From IMG/VR virus record IMGVR_UViG_3300045988_154248: a stretch of DNA of 64,000 nucleotides; one strand, written 5' to 3'. A model generated the notes under the pieces. It was not told the origin of the DNA, made no database searches, and saw nothing but the letters and a program-made list of their open reading frames with translations. Below are positions 30,136-53,407 of the stretch, piece after piece (positions within the stretch are counted from its first letter, which is position 1; the number at the start of each line of letters is the position of its first letter). The stretch is from a virus. A program made the translations under genes and the position numbers.

Positions 30136-30346
30136 TGCTCAAAATCAAAAATTGACAAATCATAAAACACAAAAACGATTCAAATCGTATGGAGAATAAG
30201 TGAATACCAAAGCAAATCATAAATAAAAAAGGAGATATTTACTATAAATAATAATTTGAAACTGATTACAACAGAAAAATTTGTTACAGAACAGAGAATG
30301 AACAGATAGACGAACTTGGACTCCGAAAGGAGTGCAATTAATCTCA

Positions 30347-37616: not shown

Positions 37617-38585
37617 CTGGCAGATATAATAGTTTGCCAGTATTATCGCGGGATATGCTGGATCGGTTCCACGAGAGATTCATGTTCTCTAAAGCTACGT
37701 TCGACTCGTAGTCCCGCAACTCGTGGCATAGCACAGATAGATGCGTGTGAGCGTATTAAAGGCGAATTTACAACTCGTCGCCATGAAAATTGGTCAATCT
37801 ATGCAAAACTAACATCCCAGGCACTCAAAAAGTGCTGTTTCATACCGGTAAAACGAGTAAGTCCTGTGTGGAAATAGTGTCAGGAAATAGGGAGTAACAA
37901 GGTGATTCAGGGGCAACCGCTGAGAATCATTTTTCTGCGCAACAGAATAGCTCACGCGAACCTATGAAGATATGATGGGGAATTAGGAGGATATATAGTG
38001 CGAGTCCTTATTAGACAAGTGCGATGTCCATTTGGGTAAGTGAATTGGTAGAGATGCCAAATTAGCTTATGCAGGATGCGAGTAGGGATTATAACCGAAA
38101 GCTACGAAGGCGTGATGGATTTTGTTATCCAAAAGATAACGAAACATCTGGTGCAGCGCGTCTTCTGTATTCAATTTCGTTTCTATTAATTAGTATATTC
38201 AGGAAGAATGTAAAAATTGGTTTGATGCAAAAGGTAAACAAATTATAAAGCGAAAGTCTGTACCTCTGTATGGTGTAAGCAGCCAAAATGTGTAATCTCT
38301 TTTGAGGTAATACACACACTGAAAGATACGCAATATCTGGATGTGTTAAGCGGATTCTGCACAGTTCTCTTAGCGGAGATTTATAGCACGGCAGTGTTAA
38401 TGGAACGATGAAACTTGAGTAGTCATACAGCAAAGAAGATAAGCCTCTTCTCAAAAGGCGGTTGTGGAAGATACTATATGTGTGCGCAAGCAACATATAG
38501 TGGATAACCGAAGAAAAAATAATGTCGGTAAAGGTTTCTGAAAATACGTATAATCTCAGCGTATTTATTTTGCTACTTCTGTAGC
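37617..38585 (+). ncRNA. candidate giant structured ncRNA (GOLLD/ROOL-class context)
   Basis: About 1 kb without credible ORFs and GC-enriched. Hairpins at 37617-37640, 37695-37711 (T-loop-like TTCGACT), 38124-38140 and 38474-38500 (with an internal GCAA tetraloop). Directly abuts a tRNA in a phage. Confidence 0.4.
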
Positions 38586-38590
38586 ATTAT

Positions 38591-38664
38591 TGCGGTGTAG
38601 CTCAGTTGGTGAGAGCATTCGGCTTATATCCGAACGGTCGTGGGTTCGAGTCCTACCACCCCAA
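38591..38664 (+). tRNA. tRNA-Ile (anticodon TAT)
   Basis: Cloverleaf read by hand. D arm GCTC/GAGC, anticodon arm TTCGG-CTTATAT-CCGAA, T arm GTGGG-TTCGAGT-CCTAC. One C-C mismatch in the acceptor stem. No encoded CCA. Confidence 0.7.
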
Positions 38665-38705
38665 CTATTTATCTTTGTTGTATACAAAGAAATTTAAAAC
38701 GAAAG

Positions 38706-46959: not shown

Positions 46960-47222
46960 TTTGCAATTTTCTGCAAACGAGCGCAGAGAATAAATGATTA
47001 GAGACGGGTGGATAACCTGGTTTCTATCTTTCATACCAATATTTATGATTCGTTATTTTATGTGAGGTGATTACACCTCTCATTCATGAGATCTTTCTCG
47101 CTTTACGAGATGATTGTTGCCGCAGTCATCTCACATAAGATAACGACGGAAGTTATCGGCAAATAACTATAAATATTAAAAATGGCGAACGCTGCCATAG
47201 TGCGAGAAAGTGGAAAAAGTAT

Positions 47223-47939
47223 ATGAGTGATATTATTAAATTTGACTATGATAAACAAACAGTATCTGCAAGAGATTTGTTCGATGCAGTAAACGAAGGA
47301 AAAGAAAGATTTAGTAAGTGGTTTGCGAGGCAGTTACAATTTGGGTTTGAAATTGGAATTGATTATTCCAACCCGTACCAAAAAGTACGGGTTCAAAAAG
47401 AAGGCAAACGTACTGTTGAACGTGAAGTTGAAGATTATGACCTTTCTATAGATATGGCAAAACATATCTGTATGGTTCAGAAGACGGAAAAAGCAAAACA
47501 AGTTCGTCAGCGTTTAATTGAATTAGAAAATGCATGGAACACACCAGAGCAGGTAATGGCTCGTGCTTTAAAGTTTGCTGATAAAACCATTTCTGACTTA
47601 AAGCATCAAATCGAGGAACAACAGCCAAAAGTAGAATATCATGATGCGGTCCTTAATAAGAAAGGATTGATTACTACTACAGTTGTAGCAAAGGATCTTG
47701 GTTATAGAAGTGCTCAAAAACTTAATGAGATTATGAATCTTAATCATATTATTTTTAAGAATCAATCTGGAACATGGTGTCCATATGCTGAATATGAATG
47801 GCTAATTATAGAAGGATATGCAGATTATCAGAGTTATACTGCAAAGAATGCTGCTCCATGTCTGAAATGGACTGAAAAAGGTAGAAAATGGATCATCGAA
47901 AATTATGATCAGTGGGTAAAGAATATTACTGCAGCATAA
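47223..47939 (+). CDS. phage antirepressor (KilAC-domain type)
   Basis: N-terminal SARDLFDAV...ERFSKWFARQLQFGF. C-terminal YHDAVLNKKGLITTTVVAKDLGYRSAQKLN. Confidence 0.7.
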   Translation: MSDIIKFDYDKQTVSARDLFDAVNEGKERFSKWFARQLQFGFEIGIDYSNPYQKVRVQKEGKRTVEREVEDYDLSIDMAKHICMVQKTEKAKQVRQRLIELENAWNTPEQVMARALKFADKTISDLKHQIEEQQPKVEYHDAVLNKKGLITTTVVAKDLGYRSAQKLNEIMNLNHIIFKNQSGTWCPYAEYEWLIIEGYADYQSYTAKNAAPCLKWTEKGRKWIIENYDQWVKNITAA

Positions 47940-47957: not shown

Positions 47958-48081
47958 GGAGAATAAAATATAGAGATCTCTCGATCTGTGTCATAGCTGG
48001 TCGAGAGAATTAATGGAATGGGACTATTGGAAGTCATGAGCCAATAGAGTAGAGTCACCTACCTCTCTCCCATTCTATTTT
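47958..48081 (+). promoter_or_regulatory. three-way-junction RNA motif, copy A
   Basis: GGAGAATAA, hairpin 47977-48008, ATTAAT. P1 is GAATGGGA/TCCCATTC, P2 is CTATTGG-AAGTCATGAG-CCAATAG, P3 is GTAG/CTAC, then a U-run. Lies upstream of the integrase. Confidence 0.55.
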
Positions 48082-48106
48082 ACGCAGACAAGAAAGGAGA
48101 GAAATA

Positions 48107-49159
48107 TTGTCAAAAGAAAAAATTACAAGAGTGAAATATTTCACTCCTGACAAAGAGAAATATATTTATGAAGAAAATTGGAAGAAATATAAAAAATATT
48201 TACAGTCCAATATTATTAAAAATAAAGATGTAAAAGATACGACATACAAGAGATATGAAGCCTTATTCCGACATTTTCTTATATGGCTTGGTGAAAGTTA
48301 TGGTGAACTTGATTTATATTCTGATGAATTTATGGAAAATGCCGTAGATATAATGGAAGGATACATGCTATTTTGTCAAGAAGTATTACAAAACCATAAA
48401 AAAATTATTAATATGAAAGTATCTGCAGTAAGTTCTTTTTATATTTGGTCAATGAAACGTGGTTTTGTTAAATATCACCCATTTGATGGAAAACTTGATC
48501 GCATGAAAAAGGCAAACGAGGAACAGATTTTAAATCATTATTTTCTTTCTGATGAGCAAATCAATCAGATCAGAAATGATTTATACCAAACGGAGAATAA
48601 TAAATGGAGCATACAAGATCAATTATTATTTGAAGTTTCTTTATTTTCCGCTAACCGGTTAGGAGCATTGGAGAGATTAACAATTTCTTCTCTTGATCTT
48701 GACAATATGGTATTTGAAGGAATTAGAGAAAAGGAAGGTTATAGAGTCGAAGTGTCATTTGATGATACATGTCGAGATATGATCGAAACATGGTTGTCTA
48801 TGCGAAAGGACGATTATGATCATCTTGAATGTGATGCCTTATTTATACATAAATATAAGGATGAATGGAAGCCATGGACAAGAAGTATGATTACTGATCG
48901 AATGCATAAATTCGGAGAAATTATTGGAATAGAAGATTTTCATCCTCACTGCATGAGAAAAACAGCGATTAATAAAATATATGAAGATACTGGCGATCTT
49001 AATCTTGCATCACAATGGGCTAATCACAAGTCAAGCGCAACCACTCAAGCTGCATATCTGAAACCAGTTTCTAAATCAGAACTTAGAGACAAACTAAAAT
49101 TATTAAAATTCAAGCAGCAGGAAATCGAAAAAGAAGTAAAAATGCAAGAAAATAATTAG
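48107..49159 (+). CDS. tyrosine recombinase / phage integrase
   Basis: ...SANRLGAL..., HPHCMRKTAIN, WANHKSSATTQAAYL form the R...HxxR...H...Y pattern. TTG start lies 7 nt after AAAGGAG. Confidence 0.85.
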   Translation: MSKEKITRVKYFTPDKEKYIYEENWKKYKKYLQSNIIKNKDVKDTTYKRYEALFRHFLIWLGESYGELDLYSDEFMENAVDIMEGYMLFCQEVLQNHKKIINMKVSAVSSFYIWSMKRGFVKYHPFDGKLDRMKKANEEQILNHYFLSDEQINQIRNDLYQTENNKWSIQDQLLFEVSLFSANRLGALERLTISSLDLDNMVFEGIREKEGYRVEVSFDDTCRDMIETWLSMRKDDYDHLECDALFIHKYKDEWKPWTRSMITDRMHKFGEIIGIEDFHPHCMRKTAINKIYEDTGDLNLASQWANHKSSATTQAAYLKPVSKSELRDKLKLLKFKQQEIEKEVKMQENN

Positions 49160-49221
49160 ATGTTGCTTGTATTAGCAACTGTGTTATTTTACTACAAATT
49201 TGTCATTTGTCAAGACTTAAC

Positions 49222-49250
49222 TTGACATTCCTCAAAAATTAAGGTATATT
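49222..49250 (+). promoter_or_regulatory. near-consensus sigma-70/sigA-type promoter
   Basis: TTGACA, 17 nt, then TATATT. The -35 lies inside the TTGTCAAG...CTTGACA dyad. Confidence 0.6.
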
Positions 49251-49270
49251 ACATTTGTAAGTAAGACAAA

Positions 49271-49308
49271 GTAGACCTGAGTAGAACGATGTAGAGTGAT
49301 ATAGTAGT
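49271..49308. repeat. helically phased GTAGA repeats
   Basis: GTAGA at 49271, 49281 and 49291 with an exact 10-bp period, plus GTAGT at 49304. Lies just downstream of the integrase. Confidence 0.6.
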
Positions 49309-49333
49309 CTATATAATTATTTAAATAAAATAA

Positions 49334-49352
49334 CCACTTGCTAATCAAGTGG
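49334..49352 (+). terminator. hairpin CCACTTG-CTAAT-CAAGTGG (weak U tract)
   Basis: A second CAAGTGG copy at 49394-49400 could pair alternatively with the 5' arm. Confidence 0.4.
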
Positions 49353-49444
49353 CTTTCAATAAATCGAATATATAGAATTGGGATATTCACCCAAGTGGAT
49401 TTCTCAGAGCCGAAGGGGTATCGGCTGATTTCAACTTACGAAAA

Positions 49445-49471
49445 GGATCGCTTATTTAGCGGTCTTTTTTC
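49445..49471 (+). terminator. intrinsic terminator
   Basis: GGATCGC...GCGGTC stem followed by TTTTTT. The same stem sequence occurs in the terminator at 60097. Confidence 0.55.
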
Positions 49472-49907
49472 GTTGGGACAATATTCTGTAAAAACATTAG
49501 AATTGTCCCGGCAACAATAGTAGATAGTAAATTACTATCATTCACAATTGTGTATGTATCTTTAAAAAATCTTAGAAACGTATCTATGTCGCATCACCCT
49601 CCTTTCTTAGCAAGGGTATCTATATAACGAAGCATCGCTGCTTCGATGCGACTCTGAAAAATCCTTGACATTGCATCCAGCCGTAAATGAACGCCTGGGT
49701 GAATTCCTACATATAGATTATATGTCAACAGGAAAAATCTGTCAACCATAACATATGGACAATCTATAGATAGATCGTGTAGCAACACGTAAACTGCAAT
49801 CTCCGACCGACGTCTAGGAATCGGTATTGGCACAAACCTGAGAAAATGTGCGACGTCAAAAAATACAAAAAATCGCAAAAATATTTATAAAAAGGACGTG
49901 CTGTACC

Positions 49908-49936
49908 TTTACAAAATTTTCCTATTGTGATAATGT
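49908..49936 (+). promoter_or_regulatory. promoter-like element upstream of the DUF262 gene
   Basis: TTTACA, 17 nt, then TAATGT, with TG two bases upstream of the -10. Confidence 0.45.
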
Positions 49937-49966
49937 GAAATTATCAAATACAGGAGGTAATTTTGT

Positions 49967-50944
49967 ATGGACTATGTAGTAAAAAGCCAGAGTGCAAAGA
50001 ACTTTACTAAAGATATCGTAAAAGGAAAATACAGTATGAAACACAAGTTTCAACGCCAGGAAAATCAGTGGGGCAATCGTCAGAAAAGTTTACTGATTGA
50101 CTCTATGCTTCGTCCGTATCCAATCGATCCAATTAGATGCGAAGTCGGATCTGACGATGTAAGAAGAATTTTTGATGGCGTTCAGCGCGCTACCACAGTA
50201 AGAGACTTTTTTAAGAAAGATGGTTTTAGATTGGCTAAAAATTTAAAACCAGTTACAGTTGATGGCGAGGTATATGAAATTGCTGGTAAAAAATATGCAC
50301 AGCTCGATGAAGCCGTACAAGATAAGCTGAATGATTATGAGATGACAATCTATGTGTTTACTGATTGTACTGGAGAAGATATTCGAGAAATGTTTACTCG
50401 TCAGAACAATGGTAAACCATTGAACAATACTCAAAAACGTACAGCAATCGAGAGTGAAAAAGTAAGTGATGTTATCTTTAATTTTGCAGATCATGAGTTC
50501 TTTGAGAAAGTCCTTACTGATGCACAATATAAGAAAGATGTTCAGCGTGATCTGATCCGCGAAACCCTTATGCTGATTAATACAAATGAAGAAAATGATT
50601 TTACATCATTTAGAGCGAAAGATATCGACAGTTTTGTTGTTTGGTATGATGAAAATATCAATGCTACTGATATCAGTATATTAACAGATGTATTAGATAC
50701 TTTCAATACAGGAGATGAAGTAATCAAGGTAAAATCTACTTCTATTCCAATGATCCTGTATGGCGGTTATAAATGTATTAAAGACGGAAAAGATTTTAGA
50801 AAATTCGAAGCTGCAGTAAATGAGTTTGTTGAGAATTATGATTCTAACGAAGCATATAAACAACTTGTACAATCTGGTACTACTGCTTCTGCTGGTGTTA
50901 AAGCTCGTCTACAGTATTGGAATAACGTCGTAGATAATTTATAA
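49967..50944 (+). CDS. DUF262 (ParB-like/GmrSD N-terminal type) domain protein
   Basis: FQRQENQW...QKSLLIDSMLRPYPIDPI...FDGVQRATT fits the DUF262 motif order. No DUF1524/HNH half is present. Confidence 0.7.
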   Translation: MDYVVKSQSAKNFTKDIVKGKYSMKHKFQRQENQWGNRQKSLLIDSMLRPYPIDPIRCEVGSDDVRRIFDGVQRATTVRDFFKKDGFRLAKNLKPVTVDGEVYEIAGKKYAQLDEAVQDKLNDYEMTIYVFTDCTGEDIREMFTRQNNGKPLNNTQKRTAIESEKVSDVIFNFADHEFFEKVLTDAQYKKDVQRDLIRETLMLINTNEENDFTSFRAKDIDSFVVWYDENINATDISILTDVLDTFNTGDEVIKVKSTSIPMILYGGYKCIKDGKDFRKFEAAVNEFVENYDSNEAYKQLVQSGTTASAGVKARLQYWNNVVDNL

Positions 50945-51013
50945 TTTTTTGTGAAATAATTTGATATGATTTTTATTATGGAGAGTGGAGCAATCTACTC
51001 TCCATTTTTGTAT

Positions 51014-51097
51014 GGGCAGATGTGCTTAGTGGCGATAGCAGTGGGCCGTAACCCCACCACATTAGAAACACCGTAGGTTCGACTCCTACTCTGCTCA
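51014..51097 (+). tRNA. tRNA, long-variable-region type, anticodon GTA (Tyr)
   Basis: Acceptor GGGCAGA/TCTGCTC, anticodon arm GTGGG-CCGTAAC-CCCAC, T arm GTAGG-TTCGACT-CCTAC. C at position 33. The variable region shows no obvious stem. Confidence 0.55.
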
Positions 51098-51107
51098 TTT
51101 TTGTTTT

Positions 51108-51197
51108 GGAGCTTTACTCAAGTTGGATGAAGAGATCAGTCCTGAAAACTGACAGGCCGTTAACAACGGCGCGTGGGTTCGAATCCTACAGGCTCCG
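51108..51197 (+). tRNA. tRNA-Ser (anticodon TGA)
   Basis: Acceptor GGAGCTT/AGGCTCC, anticodon arm TCAGT-CCTGAAA-ACTGA, long variable arm GGCCGTTAACAACGGC, T arm GTGGG-TTCGAAT-CCTAC. C at position 33. Confidence 0.7.
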
Positions 51198-51232
51198 TAT
51201 ATAATTAGTGAATGGAGGCAGTGCCTCCGTAT

Positions 51233-51315
51233 GCCGGTATGGTGGAATTGGTAGACACATCTGGTTTAAGCCCAGATTGCTATGAGCAGTGCGAGTTCGA
51301 GTCTCGCTGCCGGTA
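51233..51315 (+). tRNA. tRNA-Leu (anticodon TAA)
   Basis: Acceptor GCCGGTA/TGCCGGT with two G-U pairs, anticodon arm TCTGG-TTTAAGC-CCAGA, long variable arm, T arm GCGAG-TTCGAGT-CTCGC. Confidence 0.7.
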
Positions 51316-51343
51316 TTATTTTTTGTAAAAAGGAGACATACAT

Positions 51344-51442
51344 ATGAAAGGTATGACCGGAATTTACAGGATCAATCCTGCATTGTTTGGTGGAATTCTT
51401 GGTGGATGCACTGGTATTCTACTTCGGATTCTATTGTTTTAA
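51344..51442 (+). CDS. small hydrophobic peptide (32 aa)
   Basis: MKGMTGIYRINPALFGGILGGCTGILLRILLF. AGGAG lies 9 nt upstream. The 3' end overlaps the convergent gene by 4 nt. Confidence 0.4.
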   Translation: MKGMTGIYRINPALFGGILGGCTGILLRILLF

Positions 51443-51921
51443 GGCGTTATGAATCCTAATAAATAAAATATTAAAGCAACTACAAATGAAACAATTGCGG
51501 TATTTCTCCAATAGTGTCTATTACTATTTTCAAGGTTTTTATTCACCGCTTTTAATTCTGCATTTACATTTCTTAAAGTATTCAATTCTTCTAAATTTGA
51601 ATCAATCGTTTTGTTTTGTATTTCAATTTGTGCATTCAATTTCATGTTTTCGTACTGAATTTTTCTCATAGCTTCTGTCTGACTTTCAAGCTCAGATTGC
51701 ATAGAATCCATTTTGTCAGTAAGGAATTTTAAACGTTCTTCTGGAGATTGGAATTTTGGCATGTAATCAAATATATTCATGCTGGCATTATTGTTCAGCA
51801 TTTGCTGATAGCTTGCATCTGATATTAGTTTTTCAGAAAATTCCTGTAGTTTTTGGAGATTTTTAGATAGAGCTACTGGTTCCAATATTTTTCCATCTGG
51901 TGTGGTTATAGTTTTACACAT
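51439..51921 (-). CDS. tail-anchored coiled-coil membrane protein
   Basis: 160-aa ORF and the only minus-strand gene in the right arm. Heptad-like Q/E/N/L-rich centre with a C-terminal TM segment AIVSFVVALIFYLLGFI. Confidence 0.6.
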   Translation of the reverse strand: MCKTITTPDGKILEPVALSKNLQKLQEFSEKLISDASYQQMLNNNASMNIFDYMPKFQSPEERLKFLTDKMDSMQSELESQTEAMRKIQYENMKLNAQIEIQNKTIDSNLEELNTLRNVNAELKAVNKNLENSNRHYWRNTAIVSFVVALIFYLLGFITP

Positions 51922-51981
51922 TTAAATCACCTTTCTTTATTTTGTTTCATGTTTTATATTTTTATTCTCTTTAAATTCATT

Positions 51982-52118
51982 GGAGAATAAGTAATCATAA
52001 GCAGTTTGGTGCTTATTGCTCTGTCAGTGGAGCGTGATTAATTTTTTGGAGTAGGAAACCAGAGAAGTCATGAGCTTTGGCATAGTAGACACTCGCACTA
52101 CTCTCCTACTCTTTTTTA
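51982..52118 (+). promoter_or_regulatory. three-way-junction RNA motif, copy B
   Basis: GGAGAATAA, hairpins, ATTAAT. P1 is GAGTAGGA/TCCTACTC, P2 is CCAGAG-AAGTCATGAG-CTTTGG, P3 is AGTAG/CTACT, then TTTTTT. Lies upstream of the HNH gene and late operon. Confidence 0.55.
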
Positions 52119-52150
52119 ATTGTTATGCGAGTGGAAAGCGAGAAATAAAA

Positions 52151-53407
52151 ATGGGATATACTCATGGAACAAGTATTGAATCAAAAACAAGAATTTGTAC
52201 AAAATGTGGAAAAGAATTCCCGAATACAAATAAATTCTTTTCTTATGCAAATAAAAAACTTGGACGATTAAATGCTTTATGTAAAGAATGTCAAAAAATA
52301 ATTAGTAAAGAAAAGCGCCTGAAGATTATTGAGAAAAATAAAAATAAAGATTTATTTTATTCAGGGACACGACATTGTAAAAAATGCAATAGAGATTTAC
52401 CAAATAATAAATTATATTTTCCTATCGATCTATCTTGTATTGATGGTTTAAGAAATGTATGTAGAGAATGCAGCAAAAAGGAATCTGGTTTTCTTGATCC
52501 CAATTATACAGTTTCCGAAAAATGGACGGATGAAGAAAATAATGTATTGTTAGAAAAATATAAAGATTTTACTGGCGAAGAATTGCATAATTTATTTTTG
52601 CCAAATAGAACCGTTAGATCTATAGAATGTCATGCAGCGCTTCTTGGTCTGCAAGGCAAGAATTACGATGCACAAGTTAGAGCTAATTTGTCTAGAAGTA
52701 TAAAAAATAGTGAAAAGTTGAAAGGGCGAGCATTATCTGAAGAATCCAGAAAGAAAATTTCTGAAACAAAAAGAGAATATTTTAAGACTCATAATGGATG
52801 GTGGAAAGGTAAAAGACGTAGCCCAGAACAATGCAAAATGATAAGCGAAAGGCAAAAGGGAAAATGGGCTGGAGATAAAAATCCAAGACATTTAAATCCA
52901 TTAGTTGGCGAAGAAAATGGTCGTTGGAAAGGTGGAATTAATTCTACTTATGTCGAGTTAAGATCTGATACAAAAAGTTGGTTCAATGATTCAATGGGAT
53001 TTTGTAATTATAAATGTGTTATAACTGGCGGTGAATTTGATAATGTACATCATACAACAGCATTTAGAGATATCGTTGATGAAGTTTTTAAAATAACAGG
53101 AATAGAAGTAAAACAGCAAGTATGTGATTATAACAAAGAAGATTTCGATGAATTAAGATTAACATTAAAAGATTTGCATATGTTATATGGGTATGGAGCA
53201 TGTATAAACAAAGAGGTACATAAATTATTCCATGACAATTATGGATATACAAAATTCTCTCCATTTGACTTTTTGGATTTTTTATACAGAATCGATACTG
53301 GAGAATTTGATACTTGGTTCACGGAAAATAATTTGAAAATAAATATAAATTATGAATATGTAGAATATTTAGAAAGCACTTTGTCAGTTCTTGCGGAAAG
53401 TGCTTAA
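52151..53407 (+). CDS. HNH-type homing endonuclease with zinc ribbons and NUMOD3-like repeats
   Basis: CTKCGKEF...CKECQK and CKKCNRDL...CRECSKK. Repeated KGRxLSEESRKKISE and GDKNPRH units. C-terminal CVITGGEFDNVHHTTAF...HKLFH. ATG at 52151. Confidence 0.7.
   Translation: MGYTHGTSIESKTRICTKCGKEFPNTNKFFSYANKKLGRLNALCKECQKIISKEKRLKIIEKNKNKDLFYSGTRHCKKCNRDLPNNKLYFPIDLSCIDGLRNVCRECSKKESGFLDPNYTVSEKWTDEENNVLLEKYKDFTGEELHNLFLPNRTVRSIECHAALLGLQGKNYDAQVRANLSRSIKNSEKLKGRALSEESRKKISETKREYFKTHNGWWKGKRRSPEQCKMISERQKGKWAGDKNPRHLNPLVGEENGRWKGGINSTYVELRSDTKSWFNDSMGFCNYKCVITGGEFDNVHHTTAFRDIVDEVFKITGIEVKQQVCDYNKEDFDELRLTLKDLHMLYGYGACINKEVHKLFHDNYGYTKFSPFDFLDFLYRIDTGEFDTWFTENNLKININYEYVEYLESTLSVLAESA

Follow-up and report, generated by a model that had tools for sequence, protein, structure and literature searches.

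Two intergenic segments in a 64,000-nucleotide stretch of viral DNA (IMG/VR record IMGVR_UViG_3300045988_154248, hereafter the window), copy A and copy B, had been read from the letters as two versions of one RNA architecture. The first question raised by this locus is whether the two segments belong to a single RNA class. The second is what such an RNA does for the gene behind it. The sequence-only reading offered a branched terminator or attenuator and, as an alternative, a DNA recombination site. We find that copies A and B are members of a widespread, barely described phage RNA family, each copy being the core of a 5' leader RNA, and that the family is carried by phages and other mobile elements. 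The reading that we favor, with a probability of roughly 0.55, is an antisense leader resembling c4 and CI that controls translation.

Fold of the two copies

Re-reading of the sequence established that both segments have the same architecture, with the letters as originally described. The three-way junction was the RNAfold minimum free energy (MFE) structure of each copy, with z = -3.6 for copy A and weak significance for copy B (z = -1.1). Two compensated double changes claimed for P1 are correct, one replacing A-T with G-C and the other G-C with A-T. Identity between the copies is restricted to 12 + 9 bases, and the exact 12-mer GAAGTCATGAGC was confined to copies A and B when the window was scanned. 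The features of both sites are collected in Table 1.

Table 1. Coordinates in the window of the two junctions and the elements around them.
Feature	Position	Strand	Sequence or basis
RGAGAATAA-type motif upstream of copy A	47958..47966	+	GGAGAATAA
Copy A P0 hairpin, lineage-specific 5' extension	47977..48008	+	MFE fold, comparison with relatives
Copy A three-way junction	48016..48075	+	MFE fold and model R1 (42.5 bits)
Copy A P1	48016-48023 / 48068-48075	+	GAATGGGA / TCCCATTC
Copy A P2	48024-48030 / 48041-48047	+	CTATTGG / CCAATAG; loop AAGTCATGAG 48031-48040
Copy A P3	48049-48052 / 48059-48062	+	GTAG / CTAC; loop 48053-58
Copy A anti-box	48055-62	+	UCACCUAC; P3 loop + P3 3' strand
Copy A J31	48063-67	+	CUCUC
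Copy A U-rich tract	48076-48081	+	directly 3' of P1
Integrase ribosome-binding region	48096-48102	+	GGAGAGA
Tyrosine integrase gene, 3' of copy A	48107..49159	+	Pfam Phage_integrase E = 1.5e-17; PHROG integrase
Two divergent RGAGAATAA motifs, 11 nt apart	51962..51990	51970-51962 -, 51982-51990 +	
Copy B P0 region, outer stem enclosing two small hairpins	51992..52040	+	centroid and MFE
Copy B three-way junction	52048..52111	+	RNAfold and model R1 (25.6 bits)
Copy B P1	52048-56 / 52104-11	+	GGAGTAGGA / TCCTACTC
Copy B J12, between P1 and P2		+	AA
Copy B P2	52059-52064 / 52075-52080	+	CCAGAG / CTTTGG; loop 52065-52074
Copy B P3	52084-52088 / 52098-52102	+	AGTAG / CTACT; loop 52089-97
Copy B anti-box	52090-97	+	CACUCGCA; within P3 loop
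Copy B U-run	52112-52117	+	
Copy B U-run, boxes and ribosome-binding site region	52112..52150	+	
Copy B box 1	52126-33	+	UGCGAGUG; perfect 8-nt complement to P3 loop
Copy B box 2	52138-42	+	GCGAG; Shine-Dalgarno position, 8 nt before AUG at 52151
Homing-endonuclease-type gene, 3' of copy B	52151..53407	+	weak domain matches only

Identification of the family

A covariance model, R1, was built from 21 distant, higher-GC homologues only, without window-like sequences. In the 64 kb window R1 recovered copy A (42.5 bits, E = 1.7e-13) and copy B (25.6 bits, E = 4.6e-7) and no third site, the next best score being 9.6 bits. All three helices are supported by >170 homologues in viral metagenome contigs. 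Among 101 homologues 99% of cells pair, compared with 35–53% in slid controls, and 13/14 pairs change on both sides; in an independent set picked by protein homology the values were 96% and 33–51%, all of these pair counts coming from alignments that had been fitted to the model. The three proposed helices were right, and their variation is truly compensatory. In both sets G-U pairs fell on the + strand only, which supports the + strand as the RNA strand, as had been proposed. When DUF1376 genes were chosen by protein alone, 77/80 carried a homologue upstream.

The pair is thus not a two-copy device specific to this phage, as had been supposed; members of this large family usually occur as a single copy ahead of a gene. 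The sequence-only reading also called the P2 loop AAGUCAUGAG invariant. It is fixed in the window lineage (28/28 when the scan imposed no requirement for that loop), but relatives that are otherwise near-identical swap P2 tips as modules, with other apical types replacing AAGUCAUGAG. The same loop is identical in Lachnospiraceae-type and proteobacterial-type phages. Neither this identity across distant phages nor the modularity of the tips is accounted for by the antisense-leader model.

Rfam lacks the family, the higher-GC members falling just below the threshold for int-alpA. Rfam ribozyme families (hammerhead and other small self-cleaving RNAs) gave no match to the window copies, and a self-cleaving three-way-junction ribozyme was rejected as a candidate: the junction strands are short and variable, without a conserved core such as CUGANGA / GAAA.

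Sequences upstream of the junction

Several upstream elements had been counted as shared parts of the motif. The motif GGAGAATAA is not a component of the element, since RGAGAATAA occurs genome-wide, with 21 copies found in the window compared with 2.5 expected. It is always co-oriented with the local genes and lies at Shine-Dalgarno distance from a start codon in only 1/21 cases. Its distribution suggests that GGAGAATAA is probably a promoter or transcript-start signal outside the fold. The divergent pair near copy B sits between the divergent genes that flank this copy and would suit a divergent promoter pair. Relatives do not conserve AUUAAU. Neither L028 nor the higher-GC members have the upstream hairpins, which are additions specific to the lineage. 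The P0 loop of copy A, GUGUCAUAGCUG, is common to relatives whose P0 stems differ. In the higher-GC members a -10-like hexamer lies at a fixed 17 nt before P1; therefore the junction is the predicted 5' end of the transcript.

Relationship to int-alpA

We take the family to be related, distantly and in expanded form, to the Rfam motif int-alpA (RF02996), reportedly described by Weinberg et al. in 2017 as a candidate sRNA of unknown function. RF02996 did not match the window copies at E ≤ 10 in scans of 166–186 nt. The higher-GC homologues reach 34.2 bits with the full model (E = 1e-5), for which the gathering threshold is 35.8 bits, and a bona fide E. coli int-alpA RNA scores 64.2 bits. Conversely, our covariance model locates the E. 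coli member correctly (14.8 bits, E = 5e-4).

Both int-alpA and the window copies have a P1/P2/P3 three-way junction followed by a U-rich tract. In int-alpA the same order runs P1, a short junction (UA), P2, a purine-rich junction (GAAAAG), P3, CCU, the P1 3' strand, the U-rich tract and an AAGG-type box. The E. coli RNA has the same arrangement of P3 loop and box before its downstream gene, and it adjoins an integrase gene. For location the picture is mixed: int-alpA RNAs lie near integrase/alpA of proteobacterial mobile elements, and copy A is directly upstream of an integrase, but its phage lineage is tied to a Coprococcus genome and most relatives have endonuclease or DUF1376 genes behind them. 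The differences lie in P2 (4 bp with a loop of ∼5 nt in int-alpA, 6–7 bp with a 10-nt loop in the window copies), in P1, which is AU-rich in the window copies, and in the conserved junctions CUAG, CGAAAAG and CCUG, which are present in the higher-GC relatives but not in the window copies (J12/J23/J31 are none/A/CUCUC in copy A and AA/CAU/C in copy B). The lineages also differ, Proteobacteria for int-alpA and Firmicutes-type hosts for the window copies, and homing endonuclease genes follow the leaders in the window lineage.

The P3 loop is complementary to boxes at the ribosome-binding site

Two tandem boxes lie 9–27 nt after P1 and are complementary to the P3 loop; the second occupies the Shine-Dalgarno position. 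A perfect complement of at least 6 nt to the P3 hairpin/J31 segment was present no more than 30 nt after P1 in 87% of 120 distinct leader/downstream combinations, compared with 14% for non-cognate partners and 9% for shuffles. The median position was 13 nt after P1. There are ∼30 co-varying loop/box types, with 36 distinct best-match strings. Box 1 is the better complement and is fixed 9–14 nt after P1, while box 2, often weaker, sits 4–10 nt before the start codon and repeats the non-Shine-Dalgarno flanks of box 1 (e.g. GGGTAAGG, GAGGTTAG and AAGGTA, each present twice). The anti-box overlaps the P3 3' strand (UCAC + CUAC in the A-type, CUCC + CU in higher-GC members); therefore box pairing and P3 are at least partly exclusive.

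Copy B is a complete unit with anti-box CACUCGCA, boxes UGCGAGUG and GCGAG, and an HNH gene. Its loop/box duplex has an RNAduplex energy of -16.2 kcal/mol, which 0.6% of shuffles reach, and the MFE structure of the full leader switches to the anti-box/box helix. At copy A the cognate GTAGGTGA/GTAGG boxes of sister leaders were not found in 48076..48106, and the sole complement, GGAGAGA/UCUCUCC, was not significant (12% of shuffles equal it). We therefore do not claim an antisense mechanism for copy A. It has kept the junction, lost the boxes and the endonuclease gene of its sister phages, and is now fused to the integrase leader. Copy A is probably a relic, or serves only as a transcript 5' structure or terminator. 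The loop/box pairing, the endonuclease context and the loss of boxes at copy A all go beyond the sequence-only reading.

Genes downstream of the leaders

The elements precede an integrase (copy A) and an HNH gene (copy B), as originally noted. The copy B gene product has zinc-ribbon repeats, NUMOD3-like repeats and a C-terminal HNH-like motif (DNVHH...VHKLFH, read off the translation). Orthologous leaders precede Pfam-confirmed HNH and GIY-YIG genes, and downstream genes in the low-GC group have HNH, GIY-YIG, NUMOD1, HNH_repeat or DUF4379 domains. The genes behind the leaders in the low-GC lineage are thus free-standing homing endonucleases. Most relatives precede endonuclease or DUF1376 genes. 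Near-identical leaders also precede unrelated endonuclease genes, with divergence beginning right after box 2. At one syntenic position the A-type leader is followed by an integrase (window), an endonuclease-like gene (L119) or an endonuclease plus an integrase (L058). The phage lineage is tied to one Coprococcus genome, a Firmicutes-type host.

Function of the leader

The strongest conserved signal, the P3-loop boxes at the ribosome-binding site, lies after the U-run and so points to translational (antisense) control. Transcription of the RNA would proceed from the + strand, with a probable start immediately downstream of the RGAGAATAA motif, and the product would fold as the three-way junction, in which the P3 apical loop and part of the P3 3' strand form the antisense element. 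This element would match the two tandem boxes a few nt after the pyrimidine-rich tract behind P1, the second box coinciding with the Shine-Dalgarno sequence of the downstream gene. Pairing would compete with the P3 stem, hiding or exposing the ribosome-binding site, and would thereby limit translation of the next gene, in the window lineage a free-standing homing endonuclease. The leader thus most likely holds down the translation of homing endonucleases and other selfish genes. Pairing could occur within one transcript in cis. Should the U-run set the junction free as a short RNA, pairing could also occur in trans, which would match c4 RNA of P1/P7 and CI RNA of P4 acting on targets in their own operons. 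Against repression, box 2 is often the weaker complement, and pairing of box 1 alone might free the Shine-Dalgarno sequence, making the leader an activator or a neutral 5' structure.

In a factor-controlled branched terminator or attenuator, which we consider unlikely and at best an incomplete account, P1 and the U-run would stop transcription unless a phage or host factor on the P2 loop prevented it; how much transcription reads through into the integrase and HNH/late genes would depend on that factor. In the window P1 (8–12 bp) does close a branched structure followed by 5–6 U, and almost all members have a pyrimidine or U tract after P1. Rfam lists int-alpA as an sRNA with a consensus GC-rich P1 directly followed by U7, and very distant phages have kept the P2 loop, as expected of a binding site. 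In relatives, however, P1 can be 4 bp and the tract mixed U/C; in higher-GC members P1 has only 4–5 bp, with a gap of 3–4 nt before a tract that can be UUCCUUC. A simple hairpin-based terminator scan, blind to branched stems, calls neither site, and P2 tips are exchangeable among otherwise identical leaders. The boxes, which are the strongest co-varying partner, come after the U-run and hence cannot influence a termination decision already taken. A static pseudoknotted 5' UTR is likewise doubtful. Here the P3 loop would sit permanently on box 1 as a compact cap that stabilizes the mRNA or serves ribosomes as a standby platform, and it would neither switch nor repress. The better match and fixed spacing of box 1 suit such a cap, as does a higher-GC junction that begins at the transcript 5' end, where protective structures are common. 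Against a cap, the overlap of the anti-box with P3 makes the pairings at least partly competing rather than additive, and the repeated flanks in box 2 would be needless for a purely structural element.

Two further explanations place the function in the DNA. The ∼190-nt leader could be mainly a repeated homology block, like the PeSL of T4-like phages (PMC2839356, PMC4122927), through which endonuclease and integrase gene cassettes are exchanged, the fold being secondary. The near-identical leaders before unrelated endonuclease genes and the changing genes at one syntenic position agree with this. The co-variation of helices and loop/box pairs across ∼30 types requires selection on RNA pairing, and copies A and B share too little identity to recombine with each other. 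Such a cassette is improbable as the main explanation, although it is compatible with the antisense leader rather than exclusive of it. The original alternative of a recombination site (attL/attR, or a tyrosine-recombinase site) bracketing a 4 kb accessory segment is scarcely credible. The copies point the same way, lie on either side of a segment with the integrase, a GmrSD_N-like gene and three tRNA genes, and have the palindrome TCATGA in the loop. Yet this palindrome is off-center relative to the stem symmetry, the arms differ between A and B and co-vary as RNA with G-U pairs, and the homologues are mostly single and upstream of unrelated genes in unrelated genomes, including the DUF1376 genes. 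An attachment-site pair with an identical core at phage-host junctions was rejected, since only 12 bases in a row are identical and both copies are inside phage DNA, with phage genes on either side.

Comparison with known phage RNAs

The C4 family (RF01695; c4 of P1/P7 and CI of satellite phage P4) shares with the antisense leader the form of a small three-way-junction antisense RNA. RNase P excises C4 RNAs, which carry a 3'-terminal RCCA, whereas UAUUUU or UUUUUU follows P1 in the window copies and a promoter is directly upstream in the higher-GC members. The P4 CI RNA scores 74.9 bits with the C4 model and has P1, a small hairpin and a hairpin with a 12-nt loop. This model, though it detects P4 CI, did not match the window copies, nor did our covariance model detect P4 CI, and similarity at the sequence level was likewise not detected. 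The c4 RNA uses a hairpin loop as antisense against short targets of its own operon transcript, one of which overlaps a ribosome-binding site (PMC12197685). Copy B and the family as a whole, but not copy A, likewise have a target near the ribosome-binding site of the same transcript. Unlike C4, there is a single antisense loop with two tandem targets immediately downstream, and prophage immunity is, as far as visible, not the function of the window family.

T4-type phages restrain homing endonuclease genes by hiding the ribosome-binding site in RNA structure; upstream of I-TevI, segB and mobE this structure pairs with the Shine-Dalgarno region of the gene (PMC2988022), as proposed here. The T4-type structures are simple local hairpins with no conserved fold, relieved by late promoters inside the hairpin, whereas the window family has a conserved three-way junction, an anti-Shine-Dalgarno sequence in a loop and two boxes. 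PeSL, a repeated cassette before variable accessory genes that is tied to gene shuffling (PMC2839356, PMC4122927), consists of a promoter and a terminator hairpin, with no three-way junction and no antisense match to a downstream ribosome-binding site.

Implications

The loop/box relation, with ∼30 specificities defined by co-variation, provides a mechanistic lead for int-alpA, and the fold is not limited to proteobacterial islands but also occurs in gut Firmicutes-type phages and aquatic phages. Unrelated free-standing endonuclease genes (HNH, GIY-YIG and treble-clef/PD-(D/E)XK-like) share one structured leader, so that how such genes are controlled outside T4 can be put to a direct test. Designable translational regulators could naturally be drawn from the orthogonal loop/box pairs, and a covariance model would label hundreds of intergenic regions in viral metagenomes that are now empty.

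It is distinctly unlikely that the family is a programmable, modular riboregulator with kissing P2 loops and ∼30 P3 address loops, each address matched to tandem boxes at its own gene and P2 acting as an independent, swappable handle. Palindromes in the P2 loops would bring two RNAs together by kissing, whether short RNAs bound next to each other on the tandem boxes or leaders of different genes. Kissing of this kind could make the control of homing-endonuclease and replication genes cooperative and specific to the phage type, and could let co-infecting phages cross-talk. P2 loop-loop kissing is conceivable because two P2 loop types, AAG-UCAUGA-G and GAG-UAAUUA-U, each hold a 6-nt palindrome at an equivalent position, a layout like that of HIV DIS.

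Results

Structure and distribution of the RNA

The window consists of phage DNA with five tRNA genes and one GOLLD RNA; a GOLLD RNA followed by a tRNA is an arrangement typical of phages. The sequences and helices that the sequence-only reading had assigned to two intergenic segments, copy A and copy B, were found in place. The RNAfold minimum free energy (MFE) structure was a three-way junction for both copies (z = -3.6 for A, only -1.1 for B), with a closing helix P1 and two hairpins, P2 and P3. The segments had been taken for a two-copy device, but they belong to a large family: two pattern scans of IMG/VR yielded >100 loci, most of them with a complete homologue. The homologues split into a low-GC group resembling the window copies, with P1 types GGAAUGGGA, GGAGAGA, GGAGUAGGA, GGGGUGAGA and others, and a higher-GC group with P1 = CGGC/GCCG and the junctions UA, GAAAAG and CCU.

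A covariance model, R1, was seeded with 21 sequences taken exclusively from the higher-GC group, and the window was searched with filters off. The search found copy A at 42.5 bits with E = 1.7e-13, and copy B at 25.6 bits with E = 4.6e-7; the rest of the 64 kb held no scoring site, the next match being 9.6 bits. Applied to 100 sources, R1 returned 101 matches, in whose alignment 99% of cells held standard pairs, against 35–53% in slid controls, and 13/14 pairs showed changes on both sides. Since these loci had been picked via the P2 loop, 80 further loci were selected instead by homology to the DUF1376 protein, whose gene follows higher-GC members. The RNA lay immediately upstream of the DUF1376 gene in 77/80, and 96% of cells paired (33–51% when slid). 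G-U pairs were confined to the + strand, which indicates an RNA transcribed in the same sense as the downstream gene. A joint MAFFT alignment of all subgroups (A2) was not structure-consistent, and a model seeded from a single subgroup (A3) was used instead. Pairing in the two homologue sets thus bears out the three proposed helices, and there is strong support for both copies being real structured RNA. Two other proposed elements are not general: AUUAAU is not conserved among relatives, and the upstream hairpins (P0) are restricted to the low-GC lineage.

Features of the window and of related loci
Feature	Position	Remarks
RGAGAATAA	1375-1367 (-); 17719-17711 (-); 30191-30199 (+); 46985-46993 (+)	Example sites
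RGAGAATAA pair	51970-51962 (-); 51982-51990 (+)	Facing across the divergent region holding copy B
GOLLD RNA	38105-38562	Full-length, 193 bits
tRNA-Ile(UAU)	38591-38665	Immediately after GOLLD RNA
Exonuclease gene		Start of the gene order at 44-58 kb
Ant-type anti-repressor gene	47223-47939	Between exonuclease gene and copy A
R1 match, copy A	48016-48083	
Tyrosine integrase gene	48107-49159	Directly after copy A; then GmrSD_N-like gene
Terminator-like hairpin	50978-51005	Strong; 12 bp then TTTTTG; between GmrSD_N-like gene and tRNA cluster
tRNA-Tyr, tRNA-Ser, tRNA-Leu		After GmrSD_N-like gene; then 160-aa gene on minus strand, then copy B
Copy B leader	51982-52160	Includes CACUCGCA, box 1 and box 2
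R1 match, copy B	52050-52118	
AUG in copy B P2 loop	52070-52072	81 nt upstream of the HNH-like gene
Copy B P3 loop (as DNA)	52090-97	CACTCGCA
Copy B boxes (as DNA)	52126-33; 52138-42	TGCGAGTG; GCGAG
Zinc-ribbon/NUMOD3-like/HNH-like gene	52151-53407	418 aa; after copy B
Terminase-small-like, large terminase and portal genes		Beyond the HNH-like gene
Region of a relative with an endonuclease gene between leader and integrase	L058:2650-3900 (-)	Compare window 48060-48130
P2-tip exchange, higher-GC loci L136-L215	about 25-95 nt before DUF1376 start codon	e.g. L144:909-977 vs L148:909-977
Canonical int-alpA RNA	L217:2993-3085	E. coli 2012EL-2448 chromosome 2136147-2136239

The P3 loop and its downstream complements

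In every subgroup the apical loop of P3, often extending into the P3 3' strand, complements a box 9–14 nt after P1. A second box, usually a less perfect complement, follows about 12 nt further on, 4–10 nt before the start codon. Beyond copy B, examples (as DNA) are loop CCTCATTC with GAATGAGG-aga-AATGAGG, TCACCTAC with GTAGGTGA-gaaa-GTAGG, TCCTTACCC with GGGTAAGGA-cgaaa-GGGTAAGG, GTACCTT with AAGGTAC and AAGGTA, and CTCCCT with AGGGAG and AGGCGAG. Among 120 distinct leader/downstream combinations, which include about 30 different box sequences, 87% had a perfect complement of at least 6 nt within 30 nt of P1, against 14% when the partners were non-cognate and 9% in shuffles. Loop and box therefore co-vary. 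In copy B the duplex of box and P3-loop element (the anti-box) was calculated at -16.2 kcal/mol, a value reached by 0.6% of shuffles, and the MFE structure of the whole leader had this helix in place of the junction.

An antisense action of the P3 loop on the ribosome-binding site of the downstream gene is the best-supported reading of this arrangement, and a plausible one. We infer that such pairing would repress the gene, and that it would do so on the same transcript; action in trans would be possible if the U-run after P1 terminated transcription and set the junction free as a short RNA. Precedents for such logic are the antisense RNAs c4 (P1/P7; PMC12197685) and CI (P4), together with the hairpins that occlude the ribosome-binding site in T4 homing endonuclease genes (PMC2988022). 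The observations themselves establish the fold, the existence of a family, the co-variation of loop and box, and the gene associations. What becomes visible here is that the RNA stands in an antisense relation to the ribosome-binding site of the gene it precedes and that it is associated with homing endonuclease genes.

Other readings were weighed against antisense control. The P1 helix followed by a U-run could be a branched terminator governed by a factor, as the sequence-only reading had proposed, and this remains a rival account. The junction could also be a static cap that stabilizes the transcript. Against a cap, the anti-box shares bases with the P3 stem, which puts the box and P3 pairings in competition; in the predicted folds the loop/box relation is built like a switch, not like a static pseudoknot. 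As for DNA-level functions, the suggestion that the copies are att sites was contradicted. A PeSL-like recombination cassette (PMC2839356) is compatible with antisense control.

Downstream genes and the fate of copy A

In the low-GC group the gene starting after box 2 was of homing-endonuclease type in most cases tested, with HNH, GIY-YIG plus NUMOD1, HNH_repeat or DUF4379 treble-clef domains. Unrelated endonuclease genes are preceded by nearly identical leaders whose similarity ends directly after box 2; the B-type leader, for example, is followed by the HNH-like gene in the window and by GIY-YIG genes in the homologous loci L034 and L122. Genes downstream of higher-GC members encode DUF1376 (replication region), a methylase and others. 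These members have a -10-like hexamer fixed 17 nt before P1, which would put the junction right at the transcript's 5' terminus.

Copy A departs from this pattern. Its junction leads directly into the ribosome-binding region of the integrase, without the GTAGGTGA/GTAGG boxes. The order leader, endonuclease, integrase is found in several relatives (L058, L027, L040, L087, L126), and where Ant is followed by an A-type leader, L119 carries an endonuclease-like gene and the window the integrase. Nor was there a convincing target in trans: GTAGGTG occurs elsewhere in the window 4 times against 2.2 expected, never in a leader and once inside a small ORF. The best reading of copy A is therefore a leader whose target and endonuclease gene have been lost. 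After the L058 endonuclease gene, a lookalike of the P1 3' strand and U-run recurs (CTATTCTACTTCTTTTTAT compared with CCATTCTATTTTTAT), which hints that boxes and endonuclease gene insert or delete there as a unit.

The P2 loop

The P2 loop had been called invariant. In the window's lineage it is, AAGUCAUGAG being found in 28/28 cases by a scan that did not require that loop. Among the higher-GC members selected by protein, the tip is swappable: otherwise near-identical leaders carry AAGUCAUGAG, AGUCAUGA, ACUAAUUAC, GAGUAAUUAU, AGUUGCUA, AUUGAUCC, CUUGAUCU or GUUGCU. Eight loop types occur in these loci, independent of P3/box type. Two contain a 6-nt palindrome, UCAUGA or UAAUUA, in the same register, which keeps kissing between P2 loops conceivable. 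Pairing of the P2 loop with CUCAUGA in P0 was rejected; it occurs in some relatives only, is absent from both window copies and is explained by the P0 stem.

The AUG in the copy B loop is in frame with the HNH-like gene, with zero stops between, and the ORF list consequently gives 52070-53407. Since the AUG in the copy A loop does not share the reading frame of the integrase, the copy B frame is probably a coincidence.

Sequences upstream of the copies

GGAGAATAA had been counted as part of the RNA motif. The signal is genome-wide instead: the window holds 21 copies of RGAGAATAA where 2.5 are expected (about 8-fold; reached by 0/100 shuffles), all in the orientation of the local genes and one directly after a terminator-like hairpin. 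A Shine-Dalgarno role for GGAGAATAA was rejected, because a start codon follows at suitable spacing in only 1/21 sites. The window sites showed no clear -35 partner, just a weak AAA some 17 nt upstream, and a sigma-70 promoter scan found nothing convincing before either copy. RGAGAATAA is probably a phage-specific promoter or transcript-start signal. Many low-GC relatives (L002, L008, L040 and others) have a three-codon mini-ORF, Met-Cys/Tyr-Ser-stop, at Shine-Dalgarno distance after GGAGAATAA (e.g. ATGTGCTCATGA), about 45 nt before P1 and overlapping the P0 5' strand; both window copies lack it.

Relation to known RNA families

Rfam searches of the window (gathering thresholds) and of a 4.7 kb region (E <= 10) returned GOLLD and tRNAs only. 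Scanning each copy separately as a short sequence produced no relevant match, and none to int-alpA (RF02996) even in 166–186 nt scans; zero families reached threshold in 12 homologous loci. A literature search for the P2-loop sequence returned unrelated primer matches only. In a short-range scan, int-alpA matched one higher-GC member over its full length (34.2 bits, E = 1e-5; gathering score 35.8). R1 in turn weakly detected (14.8 bits, E = 5e-4) a bona fide int-alpA RNA located in E. coli (64.2 bits). The link is thus transitive, from the window copies through the higher-GC group to int-alpA, and the RNA is an expanded form of the int-alpA kind, itself poorly understood.

The E. coli RNA lies between a tyrosine integrase gene and a gene for a 317-aa hypothetical protein, 24 nt upstream of the latter, in an island with further genes for an HTH regulator and Icd-like proteins. 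Its P3 loop ACCUUACC complements two boxes, UAAGGU and GGUAA, arranged as in the copies' family, and the Rfam type "sRNA" may therefore conceal a cis-acting leader. P4 CI, a member of the Rfam C4 family (74.9 bits), also folds as a three-way junction and has a single long antisense loop. True homology was rejected, since neither the C4 model against the copies' family nor R1 against P4 CI gave any cross-detection.

Hosts

No match was found among 50,697 cultured-phage records (INPHARED) with a 6.5 kb region (megablast) or two leader types (blastn). A scan of genome contigs from GTDB species genomes gave 7 matches, about the chance number. Only one of these, on contig NZ_JAOQJS010000004 of Coprococcus ammoniilyticus H1_22, was a model-confirmed copy, and this single genome suggests Lachnospiraceae hosts for the window's lineage.
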